A stretch of DNA of 64,000 nt from the IMG/VR virus record IMGVR_UViG_3300022391_000001, positions 32,001-96,000 of that record; one strand, 5' to 3'. The stretch is from a virus. The position numbers were made by a program, and so were the translations under genes. This document shows positions 120-35,547 of the stretch, piece after piece. The notes below the pieces were generated by a model, which saw only the letters and a program-made list of their open reading frames with translations, was not told the origin of the DNA and ran no database searches. Positions within the stretch are counted from its first letter, which is position 1. Each line of letters begins with the position of its first letter.

Positions 120-605
120 ATGAAGTTTGTCATTGCAGCCGTCTGTCTTCTCGCCCTCGTGGGGTGTGGGATGGGCAATCAATCCTACACGATTGATGGG
201 GTGCCTGTCGTGCTGGAGGATGGGACCGGGGCCAACCCGGTCAAGGAGCATCTCACCCTCGCTGTCCAGCTATTCCGACGCGATGCCCGAGACCATTGGG
301 AATTGGATGATGCCGATGATGCCTCCATTTGGAGGTCGCTGCGGGAGATCCGCTGGACACAAGAAGCGGTGATCGACGGAGCCCGCTATGATGAATCGCT
401 CCGCAATGTAGAAGCCAATTGGAAGGGCTGCGCTTTGGAAGTCCCCCTGTATCCCGCTTTGGGTGCGCACTACGTTTGGGAATTGACCAACGCGGCGCCC
501 TCCGAAGCTGAATTGGATTGGGCTGCTGAAGTGCAATTGGAAGCTGGGCCTGTGGTCTGCACCGGTGACCAAGGTGCATCCTTTTGGGATCAGATTGGGC
601 TGTAA
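120..605 (+). CDS. putative lipoprotein
   Basis: GGAGG RBS at about 110-114; N-terminus MKFVIAAVCLLALVGC carries a lipobox; one of the few plausible plus-strand genes. Confidence 0.7.
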   Translation: MKFVIAAVCLLALVGCGMGNQSYTIDGVPVVLEDGTGANPVKEHLTLAVQLFRRDARDHWELDDADDASIWRSLREIRWTQEAVIDGARYDESLRNVEANWKGCALEVPLYPALGAHYVWELTNAAPSEAELDWAAEVQLEAGPVVCTGDQGASFWDQIGL

Positions 606-615
606 CCGGCGGAGC

Positions 616-861
616 CTATGCTGACGGAGATGGCTCTGACGCCCCATCTGGGTGTCGAGCGATGCCGGCGTTGGCCCACATCATCGCTTGCTCCAGATGC
701 GTGAACGCCAGTGCTTTCTCCCGTCCTGCTGGAACCACCGCTGACAGCAACTTGGCAAACGCCCAAGCCATCCCGCGCACCTTCTCGTATTGGCGCTGCT
801 GGTTGGCGTTGGGCGGGTGATACACAAAGCGATCTTCCAGGTCTGACATATCCATCACCAT
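616..861 (-). CDS. Acb2/Tad1-like helical hairpin protein (candidate nucleotide-signal sponge, anti-defence)
   Basis: FVYHPP...QYEKVR...VPAGREKALAFTHLEQAMMWANAGIAR matches the F-x-YH-x-P...REKSLAxTKLEEAxMWAN family pattern; GGAGGG RBS. Confidence 0.7.
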   Translation of the reverse strand: MVMDMSDLEDRFVYHPPNANQQRQYEKVRGMAWAFAKLLSAVVPAGREKALAFTHLEQAMMWANAGIARHPDGASEPSPSA

Positions 862-872
862 CGCACCCTCCG

Positions 873-1097
873 TCAGCACAGCTCTTCAACACCGTTGGAA
901 TTCAGGATGTCCCAGAGCTGTTTCCGCGTCGTCTCGTATGCTTCGTGTTGGGCTTCAGTCAACTCTTCATATTTGAGTTTGGAACGCAACCACTGGTCGA
1001 TGTCGAACAGCGCGGAGCGATAGGAGCTGCCCTTGATGGCGTTGTCGAAGTCTTCACGCTCTTCAATGAGGTCAAATTTGAGCAGTGCCTCGGCCAT
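873..1097 (-). CDS. conserved phage hypothetical protein
   Basis: MAEALLKFDL...LFDIDQWLRSKLKY; GGAGG RBS. Confidence 0.65.
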   Translation of the reverse strand: MAEALLKFDLIEEREDFDNAIKGSSYRSALFDIDQWLRSKLKYEELTEAQHEAYETTRKQLWDILNSNGVEELC

Positions 1098-1102
1098 GAC
1101 AA

Positions 1103-1444
1103 CTATCCTCCCTTCAGCTTGTGCATCCAGATCATCGCATCCAAATACACTTCGCTGTTGAAACGACGATAATTGCCTAGATGGCCGATAAGCAAGTGAC
1201 AATTGATCCCATAGCGTCTGTTTTCGCACAAGGTCATCAGGTTGGACGTTGAAAGCTCCATGTCCGGCGCCAGGTGAAACGGGATTTTGTGGTGGACTTC
1301 CAGCCTCTTTGAGCTCCCGCACACCTGGCAAACCGGATGTGTTACTAGATGGGCTGCCCTGATCTTGCTCCAACTGGGACTCCGCTTGGCGCCCTTCGGC
1401 GCTTTGCCCTGAATCCTGTCCTTCAGCTGTTCTATCAGAGTCAT
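1103..1444 (-). CDS. HNH endonuclease
   Basis: CQVCG...LEVHH...NLMTLCE...CHLLIGH HNH/zinc motif. Confidence 0.85.
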   Translation of the reverse strand: MTLIEQLKDRIQGKAPKGAKRSPSWSKIRAAHLVTHPVCQVCGSSKRLEVHHKIPFHLAPDMELSTSNLMTLCENRRYGINCHLLIGHLGNYRRFNSEVYLDAMIWMHKLKGG

Positions 1445-1459
1445 GGCAGCCCTTCATGG

Positions 1460-1690
1460 TCAATCCTTTGTTGACTCGAACATTTCAGGGATCATCACTT
1501 GATGCTCCAAAAGCGCCTTCACAAACAACCCTTTGACGTGGATGAGCACCTTCAGGCTCTCATCATCGGCATCGTCAATGGCCTCCAATAGCGCTCCCGA
1601 GAATTGATCCAACACATTCCAATAGGACTCGCCATTGATGGCCGACAACGCCTCATCTGCCTCGTTGAACTTCATTGTGTATTCACTCAT
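1460..1690 (-). CDS. hypothetical protein, possible paralogue of 873-1097
   Basis: MSEYTMKFNEADEALSAINGESY resembles MAEALLKFDL...NAIKGSSY; GGAGG RBS. Confidence 0.6.
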   Translation of the reverse strand: MSEYTMKFNEADEALSAINGESYWNVLDQFSGALLEAIDDADDESLKVLIHVKGLFVKALLEHQVMIPEMFESTKD

Positions 1691-1946
1691 AACATCCTCC
1701 TGTCCGGTCCCTTGACGGACCAATTGAAAGCACAGCTTCCGTCGATCAATCGCAACCCGTTTCAATCACGTTGCGACAATTGAAGCATACCAATCCACCC
1801 TGGTGCGAAGTCAATCCACGACCGCAAACTGGGCAAATGAGCGTCGCCTCAATCGGGATATCACCTCCCTTGAATCGGCGATGGTGCCATGCTGTAACCC
1901 ATTCTGATTGACGGGTGGTCGCCGCGCCTTGCGTTTTGGGATGGGC

Positions 1947-2486
1947 TCATTGGGCACGTGTCCTCCTGAACCCTAGCAGGCGACCCCGTTTGATCGAGCC
2001 CTCGCACCCCGCGATGGGGCAAGGCGACCCCTCCTTGAGCCCCTTGGCCACCTCCAACCCTTCATGATCTGGCCCGTGTTTCTCGCACAACAGATCATAC
2101 ACGGCACCGATGCGTCCATATCCGTCGGCGAAGCGCCCGGCCACCTCGTTGAGCACGATCAACAGGGAGGTTTCGCCATCCTCGCCCTTCACGCGACACT
2201 CAGTCAGCTCTTCAAGAGCCAGTGGCATCTCTGCCCACAAACGCCGGAGGGTGCCGATGATCCGATCTGCCACGATGACGTCCAAGAGCCCGACACACGC
2301 GTCGCACGCTCGCGTTGCGTTCTTAGCCTGTTCTAGCTCGCCCTGGAGCCTAGACACAGACGCTTCCGCTGCGCTGCGCCTAGACACATTCTCGGCCAAT
2401 TCAGCGTCCAGCTCCTGAATCCGTCGGCGCAGATGTGTCACTTCGGTGTCGTCCACGAGCCCTCCCTTGTTATCCACCGGGCTCAT
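1947..2486 (-). CDS. hypothetical coiled-coil protein with Cys motifs
   Basis: 179-aa ORF, coupled to upstream gene (ATGA overlap). Confidence 0.6.
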   Translation of the reverse strand: MSPVDNKGGLVDDTEVTHLRRRIQELDAELAENVSRRSAAEASVSRLQGELEQAKNATRACDACVGLLDVIVADRIIGTLRRLWAEMPLALEELTECRVKGEDGETSLLIVLNEVAGRFADGYGRIGAVYDLLCEKHGPDHEGLEVAKGLKEGSPCPIAGCEGSIKRGRLLGFRRTRAQ

Positions 2487-2704
2487 TCACTCTCTTTGGA
2501 TGACAAGTAGCGTAGCTCATCAGCCAGGGAGCGGAGCTGCCTCGGTGTCAGTTGCAACTCAACCTCGCACTCGTGGTCGGCATCCGATGTCCTGGACAAT
2601 CCCAGATGCACATCCCCGCGCCGATCCACTCGGACCACCACCATGCCCCTGTCGGTCATCAACCGCGTCTCTTCATCCTGTGGCTCTTCATCATCGTCAA
2701 ACAT
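2483..2704 (-). CDS. hypothetical protein
   Basis: 73-aa ORF in a tightly packed operon. Confidence 0.55.
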   Translation of the reverse strand: MFDDDEEPQDEETRLMTDRGMVVVRVDRRGDVHLGLSRTSDADHECEVELQLTPRQLRSLADELRYLSSKESE

Positions 2705-2712
2705 CGCAAACC

Positions 2713-3069
2713 TCAGTTCAGCCGGGAAATCTCCGCGCTGTCATCGTCCATCTTCACCACCTTGAAGGGCGGCTCCGGAATCAACTTGCTCACCACCTCG
2801 GGTCCGAGATGCTTCACCAACCCACCTATCGTAACATCAAGCGCCTGCGATGCGATGACAAATTGCTCGGCGGCCAATTGAGCTTGAGCCGAAGCGGTCT
2901 TGATTCCGTGAAGCACCGCGACAAACGCTTGCGTCCACCCTTGGATGCCGGCGGCGTCGGCGATGCGACGGAGATCCGCAAAGCGCTTCTCCACCTCCGC
3001 CACCCACGCGCCCATCCCTTGCATCGCTGACAACAGCTCCACCCGCTGCCCCTGGTCTTGTCCGTTCAT
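2713..3069 (-). CDS. hypothetical protein
   Basis: MNGQDQGQRVELL..., AGGAG RBS. Confidence 0.6.
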   Translation of the reverse strand: MNGQDQGQRVELLSAMQGMGAWVAEVEKRFADLRRIADAAGIQGWTQAFVAVLHGIKTASAQAQLAAEQFVIASQALDVTIGGLVKHLGPEVVSKLIPEPPFKVVKMDDDSAEISRLN

Positions 3070-3486
3070 CGCTCCTTGCTTTCTCTGTCGAACTTCTCTT
3101 GGTGCTCTATCATTTTCATCCAGAAGCGCCGTTGCCGCCCTTCTTTCCACCGGCGAAACTCAATCGCCCCCACCACGATTGTCGCCAACACAACTGCCAC
3201 CATGAAGTCTTGATCGCACGCCATCTCCCTCCCCTGGAGCTGGACGTTGATATTCCAACCACGCTTCATATTCGGCGGCGCACACCGGACACATCTCGGC
3301 GCCGTCCATGATCCTCCGACGGTCCACGATGGTTCCGACCCGTATCCAACGGTGTTGGTCGAGTGGTATCAAATTCACGAGCGGCTGGCGACAGAAGGTG
3401 CTCAAGCCGATAACGTGATGGACTTTGATCATTTGGATTGAGCCGCGCAACGGCGACAAAGATGGGCGCGTTTGCTGATTCGCAAT

Positions 3487-3717
3487 TCACCCCTCATCTA
3501 TCCGACACCAATCAATCGCCAGGATGTCGGTCTGCGATGCCAGCCAAGGCACGAGGTCCCCTGTCACCGTGCTCATGTAGATGTATGGTAAAGTCATCTT
3601 TGAGTTCTCATCCGGCTCCTGCAACGCGAGCCACATGCCCTTGCCATTCCATCCTTCGCGGTAGACCTTGCCGCCGATTCTGAGCTGCTCAAGTGCTTCG
3701 CCAAACGTCATCTTCAT
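3487..3717 (-). CDS. tad2: DUF2829 / Thoeris anti-defence 2 (Tad2)-family protein
   Basis: MTFGEALEQLRIGGKVYREGWNGKGMWL...PYIYM...VPWLASQTDILAIDW is the characteristic DUF2829 signature. Confidence 0.85.
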   Translation of the reverse strand: MKMTFGEALEQLRIGGKVYREGWNGKGMWLALQEPDENSKMTLPYIYMSTVTGDLVPWLASQTDILAIDWCRIDEG

Positions 3718-3893
3718 TCGTCATCATCCTCTTCAATGTCATCGTCGTCAAAGGCGTCGATGGCCGCCGCAACGTCCCAACAATATTGGGCTAGTTCATC
3801 GGAGTCAAAATTCTCAAATGCTTTGGCGGACATCGCCGCCACTGCCAGCTTCACTGTTGTTTCCTTCACCTTCTTGATTTGTTTTTCTGACAT
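3714..3893 (-). CDS. small helical protein with acidic tail
   Basis: 59-aa ORF with AGGAG RBS; homologous to 4201-4443. Confidence 0.65.
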   Translation of the reverse strand: MSEKQIKKVKETTVKLAVAAMSAKAFENFDSDELAQYCWDVAAAIDAFDDDDIEEDDDE

Positions 3894-30675: not shown

Positions 30676-33600
30676 TTATGCAGCCCGCGCATGTTTGGCT
30701 GACTTTTTCAGGAGCTTGATCGCACCGTTGTTCAAGAAATATTGCCAACTTTTCCTGTCTTTCTTGCGATCTAGCTGAATTCGGAGATGATTGCCCGCCT
30801 TGATGTGCTTCTTGGCACTCGCGTCCCATGCCGACGCAAAGCAGATCACATCGATGTAGTTGCCAATCCCGTCGATGATGCCAAAAAAGGCCATTTCATT
30901 GCTGTTCTTGTCGTACTTCAACCGCACATGGGTAATGACCCCGGTGAACCAACTGCTCAACCCGAGTTCAAAGAGCTGATTGGTGATCGCGCTGGCGCGA
31001 AGCGTCGTGACCACTTCGCCCTCCGCGCCCTTGTATTTGATCTGCTTGTCGGCCCAAGGGTAGGACACCGACGGGTGCTGGCCTGCTATGATGCGCTCCC
31101 AGACAGTCAGCGGTGCCCCCTCGTTCACCTTCTTGCGGTACACTTCCAGATCCAATAGGAAATGGGCGCGCAAATTCTCATACCGCGCATTGGCCGACGC
31201 GTGAACCACCACCGGGGTCCCAACGCCCGCGTCAACCACCTCACGGAAGTCATCAAAGATGTCAAAGTCAACCTTGATCCGGTTCTGCTTCCCGCCGACA
31301 TCCTCCACGTTGACATTCGCATACCTCGCTCCCCAGAACATGTCCCGCCGCTCTTCAGCAGACGGAAGCTCCCCTGTGTGAAAGTCCCCCACCTGGTTGT
31401 ACTTCACCTCCACAACAACGCCGACGATGAACACTCCGGCTCCGTCGTTGTTCACCCAAAAGTCTTCATCGCTCATGGCGGCGATTGGAACCTTGATGTT
31501 CTTGGAGATGAAGTCCCCGTATGCATCAACTGGATGCTTCCCAAAGGCCAGAGGGTTGACCTGGGACGCGATCAACTGCCGCTCTTCATCGGCATAGTCG
31601 GGCTCCGCCGCCCATTGCTTCAGAAGCTCCCGAAGCCCCTCCTTGTCCTTCTTGTTGTACACCTTCCAGAAGTCTTCAATGCCCTCGATGAACTGCTTGA
31701 TATTGGGCAACATCTCATCGAGCGCTCCCGCGCGGGCCAGCGCCAAGACCACGCCCTTGTGACACTTGCGCCGGTCCACGCGGGCAAGGAAGTCAAACAG
31801 CCCCTTGTAAGGTTGATTCTCCATGATCGTTGTCGCCGCCGCTTCACCAACACCCTTGATGTCAACCAAACTCCCCCGGATGGCCCTGCGTCCCGAGTCA
31901 ATTGCAAACTGCTTCTTGGACATCGACACAGAGGGTGGCAGCAGCTCGATGTCGTGGCGCTTGACATCCTTTGCGATCTGCTGGATGCGGAGCCGCTGCG
32001 GCTCGTTCTTGAGCAGCGCCCAGTAGAATTCAAGCGGATACTTCCGCTTGAGCCACATCCCCCAATAGGCGATAACTGCATAACATACAGCGTGAGAGCG
32101 GTTGAATCCATAGCTGTTGTGTGATTGAAAATATTGAGGATTTGCACCTTTGGAACAGACCAAATAGTTGGCTAATTCACCACCGTGCTCACACTCGATG
32201 TCCCACATCGACTCCACGCCGATATCTCGGACTTCAACCACAACGGCGGAGCTTCCCAACGCCAACATCCTCACGCCCGGATACAGATCATTGGCTTTCA
32301 TCCACCCTTTGTCGGTATTCCACCAATGATCTGGAGAGCAAGCAAGAGTCTGGCCGCCTGTGAGCTTGATGTCGAATTGCCGACGCACGCCCGTCCTAGC
32401 AACCGTCTTGACTCTGTTTTCGGTTGGCCGCCCCTCGGAATCCAAGGACACGATTGAATCGCCTGGCTTCAAGTCGCTGATTGCTTTCGTTTCAGCCTGT
32501 AACTCCGAGAATAATGCATCGAACACATGTTCTTGCTGTATGTGACTCTGCCGCACCCCAAATAAATGCATATCGGCTCTTGCCGTTTTGAGCCCTTCAG
32601 ATGATAGGATGTGTGCGGCCCTCGTGCTGTTATCTCCAGATTGTCCAGAGTGTTGTTCGTCGTGTCGCCGTCGATATGATGCACCATCTCTCTGGACAAC
32701 AGCTTCCGACCAATCATCTTTTCCATGGCCACTCTGTGCTCCAGCTCCCAGCCATTCTCCGTCTTGATCGTCAAGTAACCATTCTGCTTCCCCTTGTCGC
32801 CAATTTTCTTCTTGCAAGTTGGCGCGCCGCGCTCCGTTGTCAACTCTAAATTGTCGATGTCGTTGTTCATCGGATCGCCGTCCTTGTGGATCACTTGCTC
32901 CCGATTTGTCAACCGCCGGCCTATCTTCTGCTCCATGAGCCATCGATGCTCTCTCACCCATCCCCTCTTTGTCTTCACATCCATGTATTTGCCGTCGCGT
33001 CGGCGGCTCCCTATTGGCTTGGCTTTCGGCATCCTCTTGACTCCCGTTGTCGTTTCGTTTAGCTTCTAACGAAACGACAACGCAAGAACAAGAGGGCAAA
33101 CAACCAAAAAAAGTTATCGCGTCCATCACCCGCCCAGCGGTCTTGGCGTCCATACCGCAAGTTGCCTTCGCGCCCTCGATGAAATTTTGACGCTCCTTGC
33201 CAATAGTCTCGTCGCCCCACTTCTTTGCGATCTTTTTCCTGAGTGAGTCAGCGGTGGCCGGAGGGAACCCGGCGACCTGTGTGAAAATCTTCAGCACATG
33301 CTCCTGGTACACGATGATCCCGAGGGTGTCCTTGGTGATCTCATCTACCAACGGGTGGCCAAAGGCTGACTTCTTGATCAGCTTCGGGTCCTTTTTGCGC
33401 GCCACGTACTGGGTGGCCAAGCCCGAGCGTGCGGTGCCCGGTCGATTCAGCGCTGTCATCGCAGCGATGTCTTCAAAGTTGTTGAACTCAACGCCTGAGC
33501 AAATCTTGTCGGCGCCCGGGGAATCGTATTGGAAGATCCCCACATAGTCATGGTCTGTGAACCCCTGGAGCACATCAGGCTCGTTGAGGTCCAACTTCTC

Positions 33601-35547
33601 CAAGTCGATGTCCACCCCGTGCCGCTCCTTGATCGCCTTCACGCAGTCGTTCAACACGGTCAGAGTCCGGAGCCCGAGCACATCGAGTTTAAGCAGCCCC
33701 ATCGCCGCCACGCCATACATGTCGATGGCGCTGACCACGACATCCTTGCCCTCGTGCTTCCGGATCTCCAATGGAACCAGATCCGTGAGCGGCACCGGTG
33801 ATGTAATCACCCCGGCGGCGTGTATGCCGAGGGTCTTGGCCATCCCCTCCAGCCGCTTGGCGTGACGGAGCACGTCTGGATACTTCGCGTTGAATTCCTG
33901 ACACACCTTGAATTCAGCGAAGCTGTCCTCAATGGTCTGGCTGGCCCGCTCATCGCCGCTGCTCCGCTCGATGATCGAAGCGGTGACCGCGTTCACCTCG
34001 GCATAGGGCACGTCCAGGACTCGGGACACATCCTTCAGGCACTGCTTCCCTGACAGTTTACCCACTGTCGCGATCTGACACACCTTGTCGGCGCCATACT
34101 TCTCACGCAAGTGGTCGATGATCTCCTGGCGACGCACATCCTCAAAGTCCATGTCGATGTCGGGCATGTCGATACGACTGGGTGAGATGAACCGCTCAAA
34201 GATCAACCCGTGCTCGATGGGGTCCACGGAGGTGATGCCCAGCAGGAATGAGACGATTGAACCGGCGGCGGAGCCCCGCCCTGGCCCGCAGGCGATGTTC
34301 TGGCGTCGCACCCAATCATACAAGTCTCGGACCAGCAGGAAGTAACCGATGAACCTCTGCCGCTTGAGCGCCCCCAATTCCATCTTCAGACGGTCCCGGT
34401 AGATGGCGACGGCTTGGGCCGGCGGCATCTTCATCCGGCGGGCATAGGCGGCTGCCCGGCTCGGGATATCCCGCCAGCTCCAACCTCCGATGCACAGCTC
34501 TTTCAGGTACTGATACTGCTGTGCATCTGTGGCGTCATATCCGCCATATTCACTCGGGAGCCGAAGCGCCGGCATCAAGCACGCGAAGCGGTCGATGTTG
34601 ATGATCTTCGGCTCGATCATGCTATTGAACAGCAGAGTGTTGTCCAATGCCTCCTTGATGACCTTGTCAGACATGAATTCATGGTTATCTTGGAAGGCTG
34701 TCTTCATCTCCGCCCGAGTCCGGAGGTGAAACTCATTGTTGCCGAAGCGGAACCTGTCTGGGTTGGACATCCTGTCCCCGGTCCCGATACAGAGCATCAC
34801 CTCGTGGGCGTCGGCATCCTTCTGGTCGACATAGTGGGCGTCTTGCGTCGCCAACAGGCGTGCGTGCTTGCCCCAACGCTCCCGGAGATCCAATGCGAAT
34901 TGGTTGGCCAACCGTTGATCGTCGATGGCGTGCGGTTGCACCTCCAGCCAGAGGTCTTCACCGAAGCGCTCCCGCAGCTTCTCGGCGTCGGCCAATGCCA
35001 TCCGCTTCTTGCCCGTCGCAACCCGGTCGTTGATCGGCGATGACAAGCAACCGGTGGCAACCGCCAATCCGTCGCCGTGTTCCATCAGCGCCTTGAGGTC
35101 GATGCGCGGCTTGTAGTAGAATCCCTCTGTCCAGCCCATCGTGGACAGCCGATACAAGTTGCGGAGCCCTTCGGCGTTCTTGGCCCAGACGGTGATGTGC
35201 CACCGGTCCCGGATCCCCCAGTGCTCCTCATACCCCTTGACGGCGTTCTTGGCGTCGGCGCGATTCATCCCCTGGGTGATCTCCGCCCGCTCTTCAGGCG
35301 TGATCCCCTTGCGATGCATGTCCATCGCGACATAGAATTCAATCCCGTATATGGGCTTGACGCCGTGCTCCTGGCACTCCAACAGCTGCTGGTAATATCC
35401 GCGCATCGTGCCGTGGTCGGTGATCGCGATGGCTGGCGCTCCGCGCTCCTTGGTCGCCTTGACATAGTCGGCGACCTTGCCGCAACCGTCCAATTGGCTC
35501 ATATCCGCGTGTACGTGCAAGTGGACAAAGTCTTCAGCCTTTGACAC
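30676..35547 (-). CDS. dnaE: DNA polymerase III alpha (DnaE) precursor containing an intein
   Basis: FVHLHVH..SQLDG PHP, GPGRGSAAGS, MPDIDMDF, HAAG, KLDVLGL, YGFNRSHA, HhH and OB domains. Confidence 0.97.
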   Translation of the reverse strand: MSKAEDFVHLHVHADMSQLDGCGKVADYVKATKERGAPAIAITDHGTMRGYYQQLLECQEHGVKPIYGIEFYVAMDMHRKGITPEERAEITQGMNRADAKNAVKGYEEHWGIRDRWHITVWAKNAEGLRNLYRLSTMGWTEGFYYKPRIDLKALMEHGDGLAVATGCLSSPINDRVATGKKRMALADAEKLRERFGEDLWLEVQPHAIDDQRLANQFALDLRERWGKHARLLATQDAHYVDQKDADAHEVMLCIGTGDRMSNPDRFRFGNNEFHLRTRAEMKTAFQDNHEFMSDKVIKEALDNTLLFNSMIEPKIINIDRFACLMPALRLPSEYGGYDATDAQQYQYLKELCIGGWSWRDIPSRAAAYARRMKMPPAQAVAIYRDRLKMELGALKRQRFIGYFLLVRDLYDWVRRQNIACGPGRGSAAGSIVSFLLGITSVDPIEHGLIFERFISPSRIDMPDIDMDFEDVRRQEIIDHLREKYGADKVCQIATVGKLSGKQCLKDVSRVLDVPYAEVNAVTASIIERSSGDERASQTIEDSFAEFKVCQEFNAKYPDVLRHAKRLEGMAKTLGIHAAGVITSPVPLTDLVPLEIRKHEGKDVVVSAIDMYGVAAMGLLKLDVLGLRTLTVLNDCVKAIKERHGVDIDLEKLDLNEPDVLQGFTDHDYVGIFQYDSPGADKICSGVEFNNFEDIAAMTALNRPGTARSGLATQYVARKKDPKLIKKSAFGHPLVDEITKDTLGIIVYQEHVLKIFTQVAGFPPATADSLRKKIAKKWGDETIGKERQNFIEGAKATCGMDAKTAGRVMDAITFFGCLPSCSCVVVSLEAKRNDNGSQEDAESQANREPPTRRQIHGCEDKEGMGERASMAHGAEDRPAVDKSGASDPQGRRSDEQRHRQFRVDNGARRANLQEENWRQGEAEWLLDDQDGEWLGAGAQSGHGKDDWSEAVVQRDGASYRRRHDEQHSGQSGDNSTRAAHILSSEGLKTARADMHLFGVRQSHIQQEHVFDALFSELQAETKAISDLKPGDSIVSLDSEGRPTENRVKTVARTGVRRQFDIKLTGGQTLACSPDHWWNTDKGWMKANDLYPGVRMLALGSSAVVVEVRDIGVESMWDIECEHGGELANYLVCSKGANPQYFQSHNSYGFNRSHAVCYAVIAYWGMWLKRKYPLEFYWALLKNEPQRLRIQQIAKDVKRHDIELLPPSVSMSKKQFAIDSGRRAIRGSLVDIKGVGEAAATTIMENQPYKGLFDFLARVDRRKCHKGVVLALARAGALDEMLPNIKQFIEGIEDFWKVYNKKDKEGLRELLKQWAAEPDYADEERQLIASQVNPLAFGKHPVDAYGDFISKNIKVPIAAMSDEDFWVNNDGAGVFIVGVVVEVKYNQVGDFHTGELPSAEERRDMFWGARYANVNVEDVGGKQNRIKVDFDIFDDFREVVDAGVGTPVVVHASANARYENLRAHFLLDLEVYRKKVNEGAPLTVWERIIAGQHPSVSYPWADKQIKYKGAEGEVVTTLRASAITNQLFELGLSSWFTGVITHVRLKYDKNSNEMAFFGIIDGIGNYIDVICFASAWDASAKKHIKAGNHLRIQLDRKKDRKSWQYFLNNGAIKLLKKSAKHARAA
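32116..33102 (-). mobile_element. intein (329 aa, residues 816-1144)
   Basis: FFG|CLPS...ISDLKPGDSI...CSPDH (block B)...GW..A.DL..G...MWDIE...SHN|S; removing it restores FFGSYGFNRSH. Confidence 0.93.
32469..33032 (-). CDS. tandem-HNH homing endonuclease nested out-of-frame within the intein
   Basis: two EHR..ME..IGR.L...E.V.H.DGD..NN..DNLE repeats; own GGAG/GAGG RBS; +1 frame relative to dnaE. Confidence 0.9.
   Translation of the reverse strand: MPKAKPIGSRRRDGKYMDVKTKRGWVREHRWLMEQKIGRRLTNREQVIHKDGDPMNNDIDNLELTTERGAPTCKKKIGDKGKQNGYLTIKTENGWELEHRVAMEKMIGRKLLSREMVHHIDGDTTNNTLDNLEITARGPHTSYHLKGSKRQEPICIYLGCGRVTYSKNMCSMHYSRSYRLKRKQSAT

Follow-up and report, generated by a model that had tools for sequence, protein, structure and literature searches.

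Homing endonuclease genes nested in inteins out of frame or in antisense were first proposed by Gorbalenya in 1998, according to the citation in a recent preprint (bioRxiv 10.64898/2026.09.14.751524). In actinobacteriophages, inteins with the endonuclease in a separate frame or in antisense have been described (Gosselin, Arsenault and Gogarten, bioRxiv 10.1101/2025.01.02.630785). Like the locus studied here, these inteins are contiguous, their extein frame remains open across an overlapping endonuclease open reading frame (ORF), the peptide encoded in frame is predicted to be unstructured, and they were proposed to have arisen when a free-standing endonuclease gene invaded an intein. A cyanobacterial dnaX intein was likewise found to carry an out-of-frame LAGLIDADG endonuclease (Phillips, DeSimone and Gogarten, bioRxiv 10.64898/2026.09.14.751524). 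It resembles our locus in that the overlapping ORF has a Shine-Dalgarno (SD) motif, the in-frame region is disordered, and mini-intein and intein-free alleles coexist; moreover, frame-dependent selection was reported to favour the endonuclease frame. Here, we analysed a window of 64,000 nucleotides (nt), positions 32,001 to 96,000 of the IMG/VR record IMGVR_UViG_3300022391_000001, which is a metagenome-derived viral contig (105,469 bp, direct terminal repeats) and represents an uncultivated phage. Its dnaE gene, encoding a DNA polymerase III alpha-like protein, contains an intein, and the DNA of this intein contains an HNH endonuclease gene in another frame. We consider it likely that this locus is a non-canonical class-1 DnaE intein with a spliced-out linker and a separately made, +1-frame HNH homing cassette.

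An out-of-frame endonuclease gene in an intein is an already published layout. What is unusual in the window is that the gene sits in a loop near the intein start, and this loop position is the respect in which the window case departs from that layout. In the actinobacteriophage cases, the endonucleases are endonuclease VII-like (frame 3) or antisense LAGLIDADG/VSR enzymes in polymerase, terminase, capsid and ThyX hosts, and they occupy the usual endonuclease region outside the splicing domain, whereas the window has a tandem HNH_3 nuclease in the +1 frame of a DnaE host, inserted into the beta2/beta3 loop of the N-terminal splicing lobe. Compared to the dnaX intein, the window differs by encoding an HNH nuclease, by the +1 frame, by the insertion after block A, by the phage origin of the host gene and by a hairpin that sequesters the ribosome-binding site (RBS). 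In the published work on such inteins, we found neither a tandem HNH_3 nuclease in this role nor DnaE as the host.

The coordinates of the features, all of which lie on the minus strand, are given in Table 1. The dnaE frame is open throughout and reads FFG/C at the first and HN/S at the second splice junction (marked by slashes), in agreement with the initial annotation; the gene is thus a single ORF and not a split one. Nested in the intein, we found a complete ORF with its own start and stop codons, which begins on the second position of a dnaE codon and whose stop codon overlaps the codons for the intein residues AISDL. The predicted product contains two stretches matching the Pfam family PF13392 (HNH_3), with an E value of 2e-19 and a score of 69.2 bits against a cut-off of 24.8, as expected for the tandem-HNH gene that had been annotated in the +1 frame. 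Many HNH families of the PHROG database also matched, down to an E value of 2e-24. AlphaFold predicted this product with a mean predicted local distance difference test score (pLDDT) of 77, reaching 93-97 in the second HNH_3 domain. A Cys-rich module of the form C-x4-C-x9-C-x2-HY-x-R-x-YR follows at residues 152-184, at the C terminus. The genome of 105,469 bp contains a single copy of the gene. The protein was not among the 5.8 billion predicted proteins of a database and has no close homologue; its best protein matches span one HNH_3 domain only, with 45-54% identity.

Table 1. Features of the dnaE locus; coordinates are positions in the window of 64,000 nt
Feature	Coordinates	Strand	Basis
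dnaE (DNA polymerase III alpha-like) precursor ORF, 1623 amino acids (aa) including the intein	30676..35547	-	ORF list, translation, Pfam
N-extein, residues 1-815, ending in ...AITFFG	33103..35547	-	translation; junction aligns with intein-less homologues
C-extein, starting with SYGFNRSH, +1 nucleophile Ser, plus stop codon	30676..32115	-	translation
Class-1 intein, 329 aa, Cys816 to Asn1144, then Ser	32116..33102	-	alignment A3, AlphaFold, Foldseek
Intein residues 1-11 (CLPSCSCVVVS), block A, first Hint beta strands, upstream of the insert	33070..33102	-	alignment A3, AlphaFold
Predicted read-through linker in the dnaE frame, about 190-198 aa, hydrophilic, approximate bounds	32476..33069	-	pLDDT 31-50, stop-avoidance statistics
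Rest of the Hint splicing domain, residues 212-329 (ISDLKPGD ... SPDHWW ... WDIECE ... SHN)	32116..32469	-	pLDDT 89-98
HNH homing-endonuclease-type gene, 187 aa, +1 frame relative to dnaE	32469..33032	-	translation, Pfam, PHROG, AlphaFold
Extended RNA hairpin, with a 15-bp core stem at 33045-33082	33018..33108	-	fold energy, shuffles

We then asked whether the dnaE frame is open across the HNH gene more than chance allows. When the synonymous codons of the HNH gene were permuted, with the HNH protein and its codon usage held constant, 7.5 stops were expected in the dnaE frame; we observed none, and zero was reached in 0 of 20,000 shuffles. The third frame contained 14 stops, compared to 13.9 expected in the same shuffles. 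Counting T at HNH codon position 3 before AAN, AGN and GAN codons, a check suggested with the initial annotation, gave 0/61 in these stop-creating contexts and 26/126 in all others. Free-standing relatives of the HNH_3 gene, which exist in other phage contigs, have 11-30 stops in the equivalent frame. The dnaE frame of the window is thus kept open via avoidance of wobble T before AA, AG and GA, and dual coding, which the initial annotation had suspected from the open frame, is real and under selection. Since every potential host-frame stop requires a wobble T of the nested gene in the +1 register, synonymous changes alone suffice to keep the host frame open.

The +1 register holds in ten DnaE cases, including the window, but was rejected as a general rule, since the HNH_3 genes of two other loci use another one. 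In L014, an HNH_3 relative (2824-3498) is nested in a host ORF (167-3748) for TerL with GpA_ATPase and Intein_splicing domains, and in L016 another relative (2830-3465) is nested in a host ORF (947-3736) with a Hint_2 domain. In both loci, the host frame corresponds to HNH+1 and is free of stops across the HNH gene.

Related inteins at the same DnaE site were sought in viral and metagenome contigs. A single-protein scan of viral contigs with the Hint and C-extein part found nothing, and a scan of viral and metagenome contigs for the junction peptide HNSYGFN then succeeded; with additional DnaE loci, this yielded about 30 unique inteins at the site. Ten of them are long inteins (272-329 aa) of the FFG/C family, namely, the window, L018, L019, L023, L038, L045, L068, L069, L070 and L077, and all ten contain an HNH ORF of 146-194 aa in the +1 frame. 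In each of the nine long inteins other than the window, no stop was present in the intein frame (4.1-12.8 expected; probability of zero at most 0.005 each), and the counts of wobble T in risky contexts ranged from 0/36 to 0/68. The nuclease of these nine belongs to another family than that of the window: their ORFs form one family with a single HNH and all exceed the Pfam gathering threshold of PF01844. Across the nine loci, amino-acid identity reached 46% when the columns were read in the HNH frame but 24% when the same columns were read in the intein frame, and substitutions peaked at HNH codon position 3 (0.62, compared to 0.44 at position 1 and 0.40 at position 2). Both observations indicate that the nuclease is the reading under purifying selection in these relatives, the intein frame being merely open.

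The relatives with site FFG/C...HN/SYGFN, +1 register and zero stops (L018/L039, L019, L023, L038, L045, L068, L069, L070 and L077) thus share the architecture of the window and differ in the nuclease, which has one PF01844 HNH and an N-terminal Cys module. The C-terminal Cys module of the window HNH aligns with this N-terminal module (alignment A5, columns 6-38; hhalign probability, 93%). However, Cys modules of this type are widespread, with 4-13 tandem repeats in many unrelated predicted proteins, so that the shared module is no proof of a common target. In predicted-protein databases, the PF01844 family has only two or three called relatives, and the near-absence of full-length relatives of either nuclease fits nested ORFs that are skipped by gene callers.

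The same DnaE site also harbours mini-inteins of 138-154 aa (L084, L080 and L032 and the proteins P0008, P0015 and P0016), and intein-less DnaE homologues of about 1273-1294 aa read uninterrupted through ...AITFFG-SYGFNKSH..., in which the SYGFN motif is invariant among DnaE homologues. The search for homologues with and without the insert, which had been recommended, thus recovered long inteins, mini-inteins and intein-less alleles at a single site. Among the unique inteins with a locatable N-terminal junction, no version with a host-frame stop or a split was found.

Several further arrangements were observed in DnaE proteins. P0013, a member of the same intein family known from its protein sequence only, contains an insert of about 180 aa with a junk-like sequence between GEEILSSDE and VIRNRIKAIG, apparently a third position, and this sequence suggests yet another loop tolerant of a nested cassette. 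P0012 has a mini-intein at FFG/SYGFN and, only a few residues further on, another insert, whose HNH (CEECG...HEVAHIKS...LLCNSCH) is apparently in frame. L032 encodes a DnaE of 1998 aa with its 154-aa mini-intein plus other inserts, and the DnaE proteins of L024 and L025 contain about 270 additional residues in other places. A divergent second DnaE clade with the junction STFG/CLTGDT (L054-L065, L071, L076, L083 and L086) carries inteins of 243-253 aa at the same site; these match the Pfam family Intein_splicing, show only sub-threshold in-frame HNH-like matches and are stop-rich in the alternative frames. They seem to be conventional in-frame inteins.

In a further step, we investigated the signals that might govern expression of the HNH gene. 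The 101 nt around its start fold with -46.7 kcal/mol (z = -7.0), and 0 of 200 shuffled sequences were equally stable. The helices of this hairpin pair the GGAG SD motif, which lies 8 nt before the AUG, as well as an AAGAGG sequence and the G of the HNH AUG itself. Thus, the RBS proposed for the HNH gene is present (GGAG-TCAAGAGG-ATG), but it is not freely exposed, being buried in a very stable hairpin. The hairpin loop contains a UAG in the HNH frame and a UAA in the third frame, and only the register that is used leaves dnaE open. No comparably strong RBS hairpin was found in the nine relatives, although weak hairpins containing the SD occur in L068 and L069. A scan of the gene strand for sigma-70-like promoters and terminators found none, a result that says little, since the promoters of this phage are unknown.

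Some of these observations weigh against an active, separately made nuclease in a splicing intein. Sequestration of the RBS in the hairpin of -46.7 kcal/mol is strong and could allow very little HNH expression. In the first HNH_3 domain, the His/Asn position that comes last among the conserved ones of the alignment is missing and, judged from this position, the domain may be catalytically dead. The window HNH also has no close homologue that could attest to purifying selection on this protein. Regarding the loop, the beta2/beta3 loop is where engineered S1 split inteins, whose N-intein has 10-12 aa, are cut; some of them splice, but only 4 of 14 such splits did so, which means that tolerance of this loop is not universal (PMC3620165).

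The buried RBS and start codon, the missing terminal metal-ligand position in the first HNH_3 domain and the lack of close homologues that could reveal purifying selection would also be compatible with an HNH ORF that is a relic, in which the nuclease is neither expressed nor active and only the dnaE frame is maintained, so that the element would effectively be a mini-intein with a long linker. We regard this as unlikely, since 187 codons are intact, with both HNH_3 matches well above threshold and a confidently predicted fold, and since one would expect decay or deletion of a useless 600-nt insert in a gene that is essential. Moreover, the HNH frame is clearly the conserved one in the sister family of the nine relatives.

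The splicing domain itself was analysed in an alignment of 16 inteins (A3), in which C1, H259, D301, H328 and N329 are invariant. The N-terminal nucleophile, Cys816, directly follows FFG and corresponds to the constant C1. The block B motif is SPDH, with the invariant H259 and a Ser at the Thr position of the TxxH type. D301 lies in the block F motif WDIECE, and the intein ends with SHN/S, Ser being the +1 nucleophile. In an AlphaFold2 model built on A3, residues 1-10 reached a pLDDT of 97 and residues 200-329 one of 89-98, whereas the insert (about residues 30-190) scored 31-50; residues 7-11 form a strand. Foldseek retrieved solved mini-inteins as the top matches of this model (E = 3e-8; target template modeling [TM] score, 0.7-0.77), examples being Mtu RecA (2in0) and gp41-1 (6qaz) with target TM scores of 0.74-0.77, and the part of the Hint domain downstream of the insert gave a weak Pfam match to PT-HINT. 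As modelled, the Hint fold surrounds the low-confidence linker and is complete. The linker read in the dnaE frame did not match any Pfam family, and the unstructured look that had been noted for the roughly 190 residues after block A is consistent with both results.

These data bear on the possibility that the intein is inactive and that DnaE works with the 329-aa insertion retained. Indeed, hidden out-of-frame HNH insertions of the ShiLan type were described in phage methylase genes that carry no splicing element (Arsenault et al. 2025, PMC11855218). As in the window, an out-of-frame HNH ORF lies inside an open host ORF, with its stop codon at the very end of the insert. In contrast to the window cassette, which an intein protects and which carries an SD motif, the ShiLan type has no splicing domain and no detectable RBS. 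Retention of the insertion in DnaE is in our view very improbable, given that Cys1, the block B His, the block F Asp, the terminal His-Asn and Ser+1 are all intact and invariant, that a Hint fold is predicted with high confidence, and that the insertion would interrupt the invariant polymerase motif FFG-SYGFNKSH.

Alignment A3 also located the insert. The window residues CLPSCSCVVVS align with the mini-intein sequence CLxxDTxIxTP, homology resumes at KAISDLKPGD, and the counterparts of these two segments are adjacent in the mini-intein relatives. The insert therefore follows residue 11 and precedes the ISDLKPGD strand, instead of occupying the canonical endonuclease position; both A3 and the AlphaFold model agree here with the initial annotation, which had placed it just after block A. 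Among the nine relatives, the HNH lies at the canonical position after block B in 8/9, and only L018 has it in the same beta2/beta3 loop as the window. The insertions of the window and L018 were probably independent events, since the nucleases are of different families (PF01844 in L018) and the Hint cores are only 40% identical. The suggestion that an HNH gene of the free-standing type invaded a mini-intein is consistent with the mini-inteins at the same site, with the two nested positions used by the unrelated HNH family and with the free-standing HNH_3 relatives.

Phage HNH genes often lie within group I introns, and the insert could in principle be removed at the RNA level, as part of a group I or group II intron or of another ribozyme that houses the HNH ORF. 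An Rfam scan of positions 31500-33700 at E values up to 1 did not detect any intron and returned only chance miRNA-like hairpin matches; no ribozyme core was recognized, and the approximately 60 nt of the insert that lie outside the HNH ORF would be too short for one. Together with the strong selection against dnaE-frame stops, which shows that the region is translated, these findings make removal at the RNA level hardly credible. An assembly or sequencing artefact, in which a canonical in-frame HNH intein was shifted by indels, might be suspected in a contig of metagenomic origin, but we dismiss it almost entirely: it would require two compensating indels, the HNH frame is closed by a UAG 33 nt upstream of the AUG and has its own SD and stop, the same +1 layout recurs in nine independent contigs from other samples, and the lack of stops in the dnaE frame is not a signal that an artefact can produce. 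Finally, programmed frameshifting from the dnaE frame could yield the HNH in fused form, at the extein/intein junction with its U7 run, where a heptamer U UUU UUU (33105-33111) lies 8 nt upstream of the helix base. This has next to no probability: a -1 shift would lead into the third frame, which is terminated after 15 codons by the UAA of the loop, while the UAG of the loop closes the +1 (HNH) frame. Moreover, U7 is not conserved, the relatives showing TTC/TTT mixtures equally with or without an intein. The heptamer, read on the minus strand in the -1 slippage register, encodes the conserved FF and is probably incidental.

We thus favour a dual-coding intein, for which we infer protein splicing, independent HNH translation and homing from the sequence features described above. 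The cassette would consist of the 5' hairpin, the SD motif and the tandem HNH_3 gene ending in the Cys-rich module of a DNA-binding type. Ribosomes translating dnaE would pass straight across the cassette, the resulting junk linker would loop out of the Hint fold, and protein splicing in cis would remove intein and linker together to yield an active polymerase. The HNH would be a separate product of this mRNA, for which translation would start internally at 33032, probably at a low level owing to the hairpin and perhaps aided by dnaE-translating ribosomes that melt it. The nuclease would then cut dnaE alleles without the element, and repair would copy intein and cassette into them. Mini-intein and intein-less dnaE alleles do exist.

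This organization can also be compared to that of split inteins. In the fractured genes, a free-standing endonuclease gene lies between the halves of a split intein (Dassa et al. 2009, PMC2677866). They resemble the window in having a hairpin-preceded endonuclease cassette in the intein DNA of a phage replication gene, with the 3' end of the endonuclease gene overlapping downstream intein codons (PMC2677866). In contrast, the host frame of the window is unbroken and encodes one contiguous precursor, for which splicing would be a cis and not a trans reaction. Atypical split inteins with short N-fragments occur naturally, examples being AceL-TerL (25 aa) and GOS-TerL (37 aa); their break point lies near the intein N terminus (PMC11766414), as does the insertion of the window. 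Because the hairpin loop contains stops in the two other frames, insertion in another register or a single indel would lead to an S1-type split intein in one step. It is conceivable, though we propose it only tentatively, that S1-loop cassettes are contiguous precursors of AceL-TerL-type split inteins and that the hairpin makes HNH synthesis depend on dnaE ribosomes.

Regarding the genomic setting, the dnaE product contains the Pfam domains PHP, DNA_pol3_alpha, DNA_pol3_finger and HHH_6. A blastn search of the region against GenBank phages gave zero matches, and the nearest DnaE of a cultured phage found by tblastn was at most 35% identical. In the Rhodococcus phages Dorin and Francesca (GenBank PQ114736.1 and PP978770.1), an annotated endonuclease VII gene lies under or beside the DnaE-like match, and this may be another dnaE-associated endonuclease gene in cultured phages.

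Dual coding characterizes all ten long inteins found at this site of the phage DnaE, and this suggests that inteins commonly contain out-of-frame homing endonuclease genes. Gene callers miss the nested HNH, and such inteins are likely to be mistaken for decaying or oversized mini-inteins. In all ten loci, the same overprinting rule applies, by which the +1 register puts every potential host-frame stop on a wobble base of the nested gene. If the hairpin does make HNH synthesis depend on dnaE ribosomes, it would couple nuclease dosage to polymerase expression. The beta2/beta3 loop is a natural insertion site for about 200 residues and thus a template for loop-insertion or conditional inteins, and insertion into this loop suggests a route to atypical split inteins.

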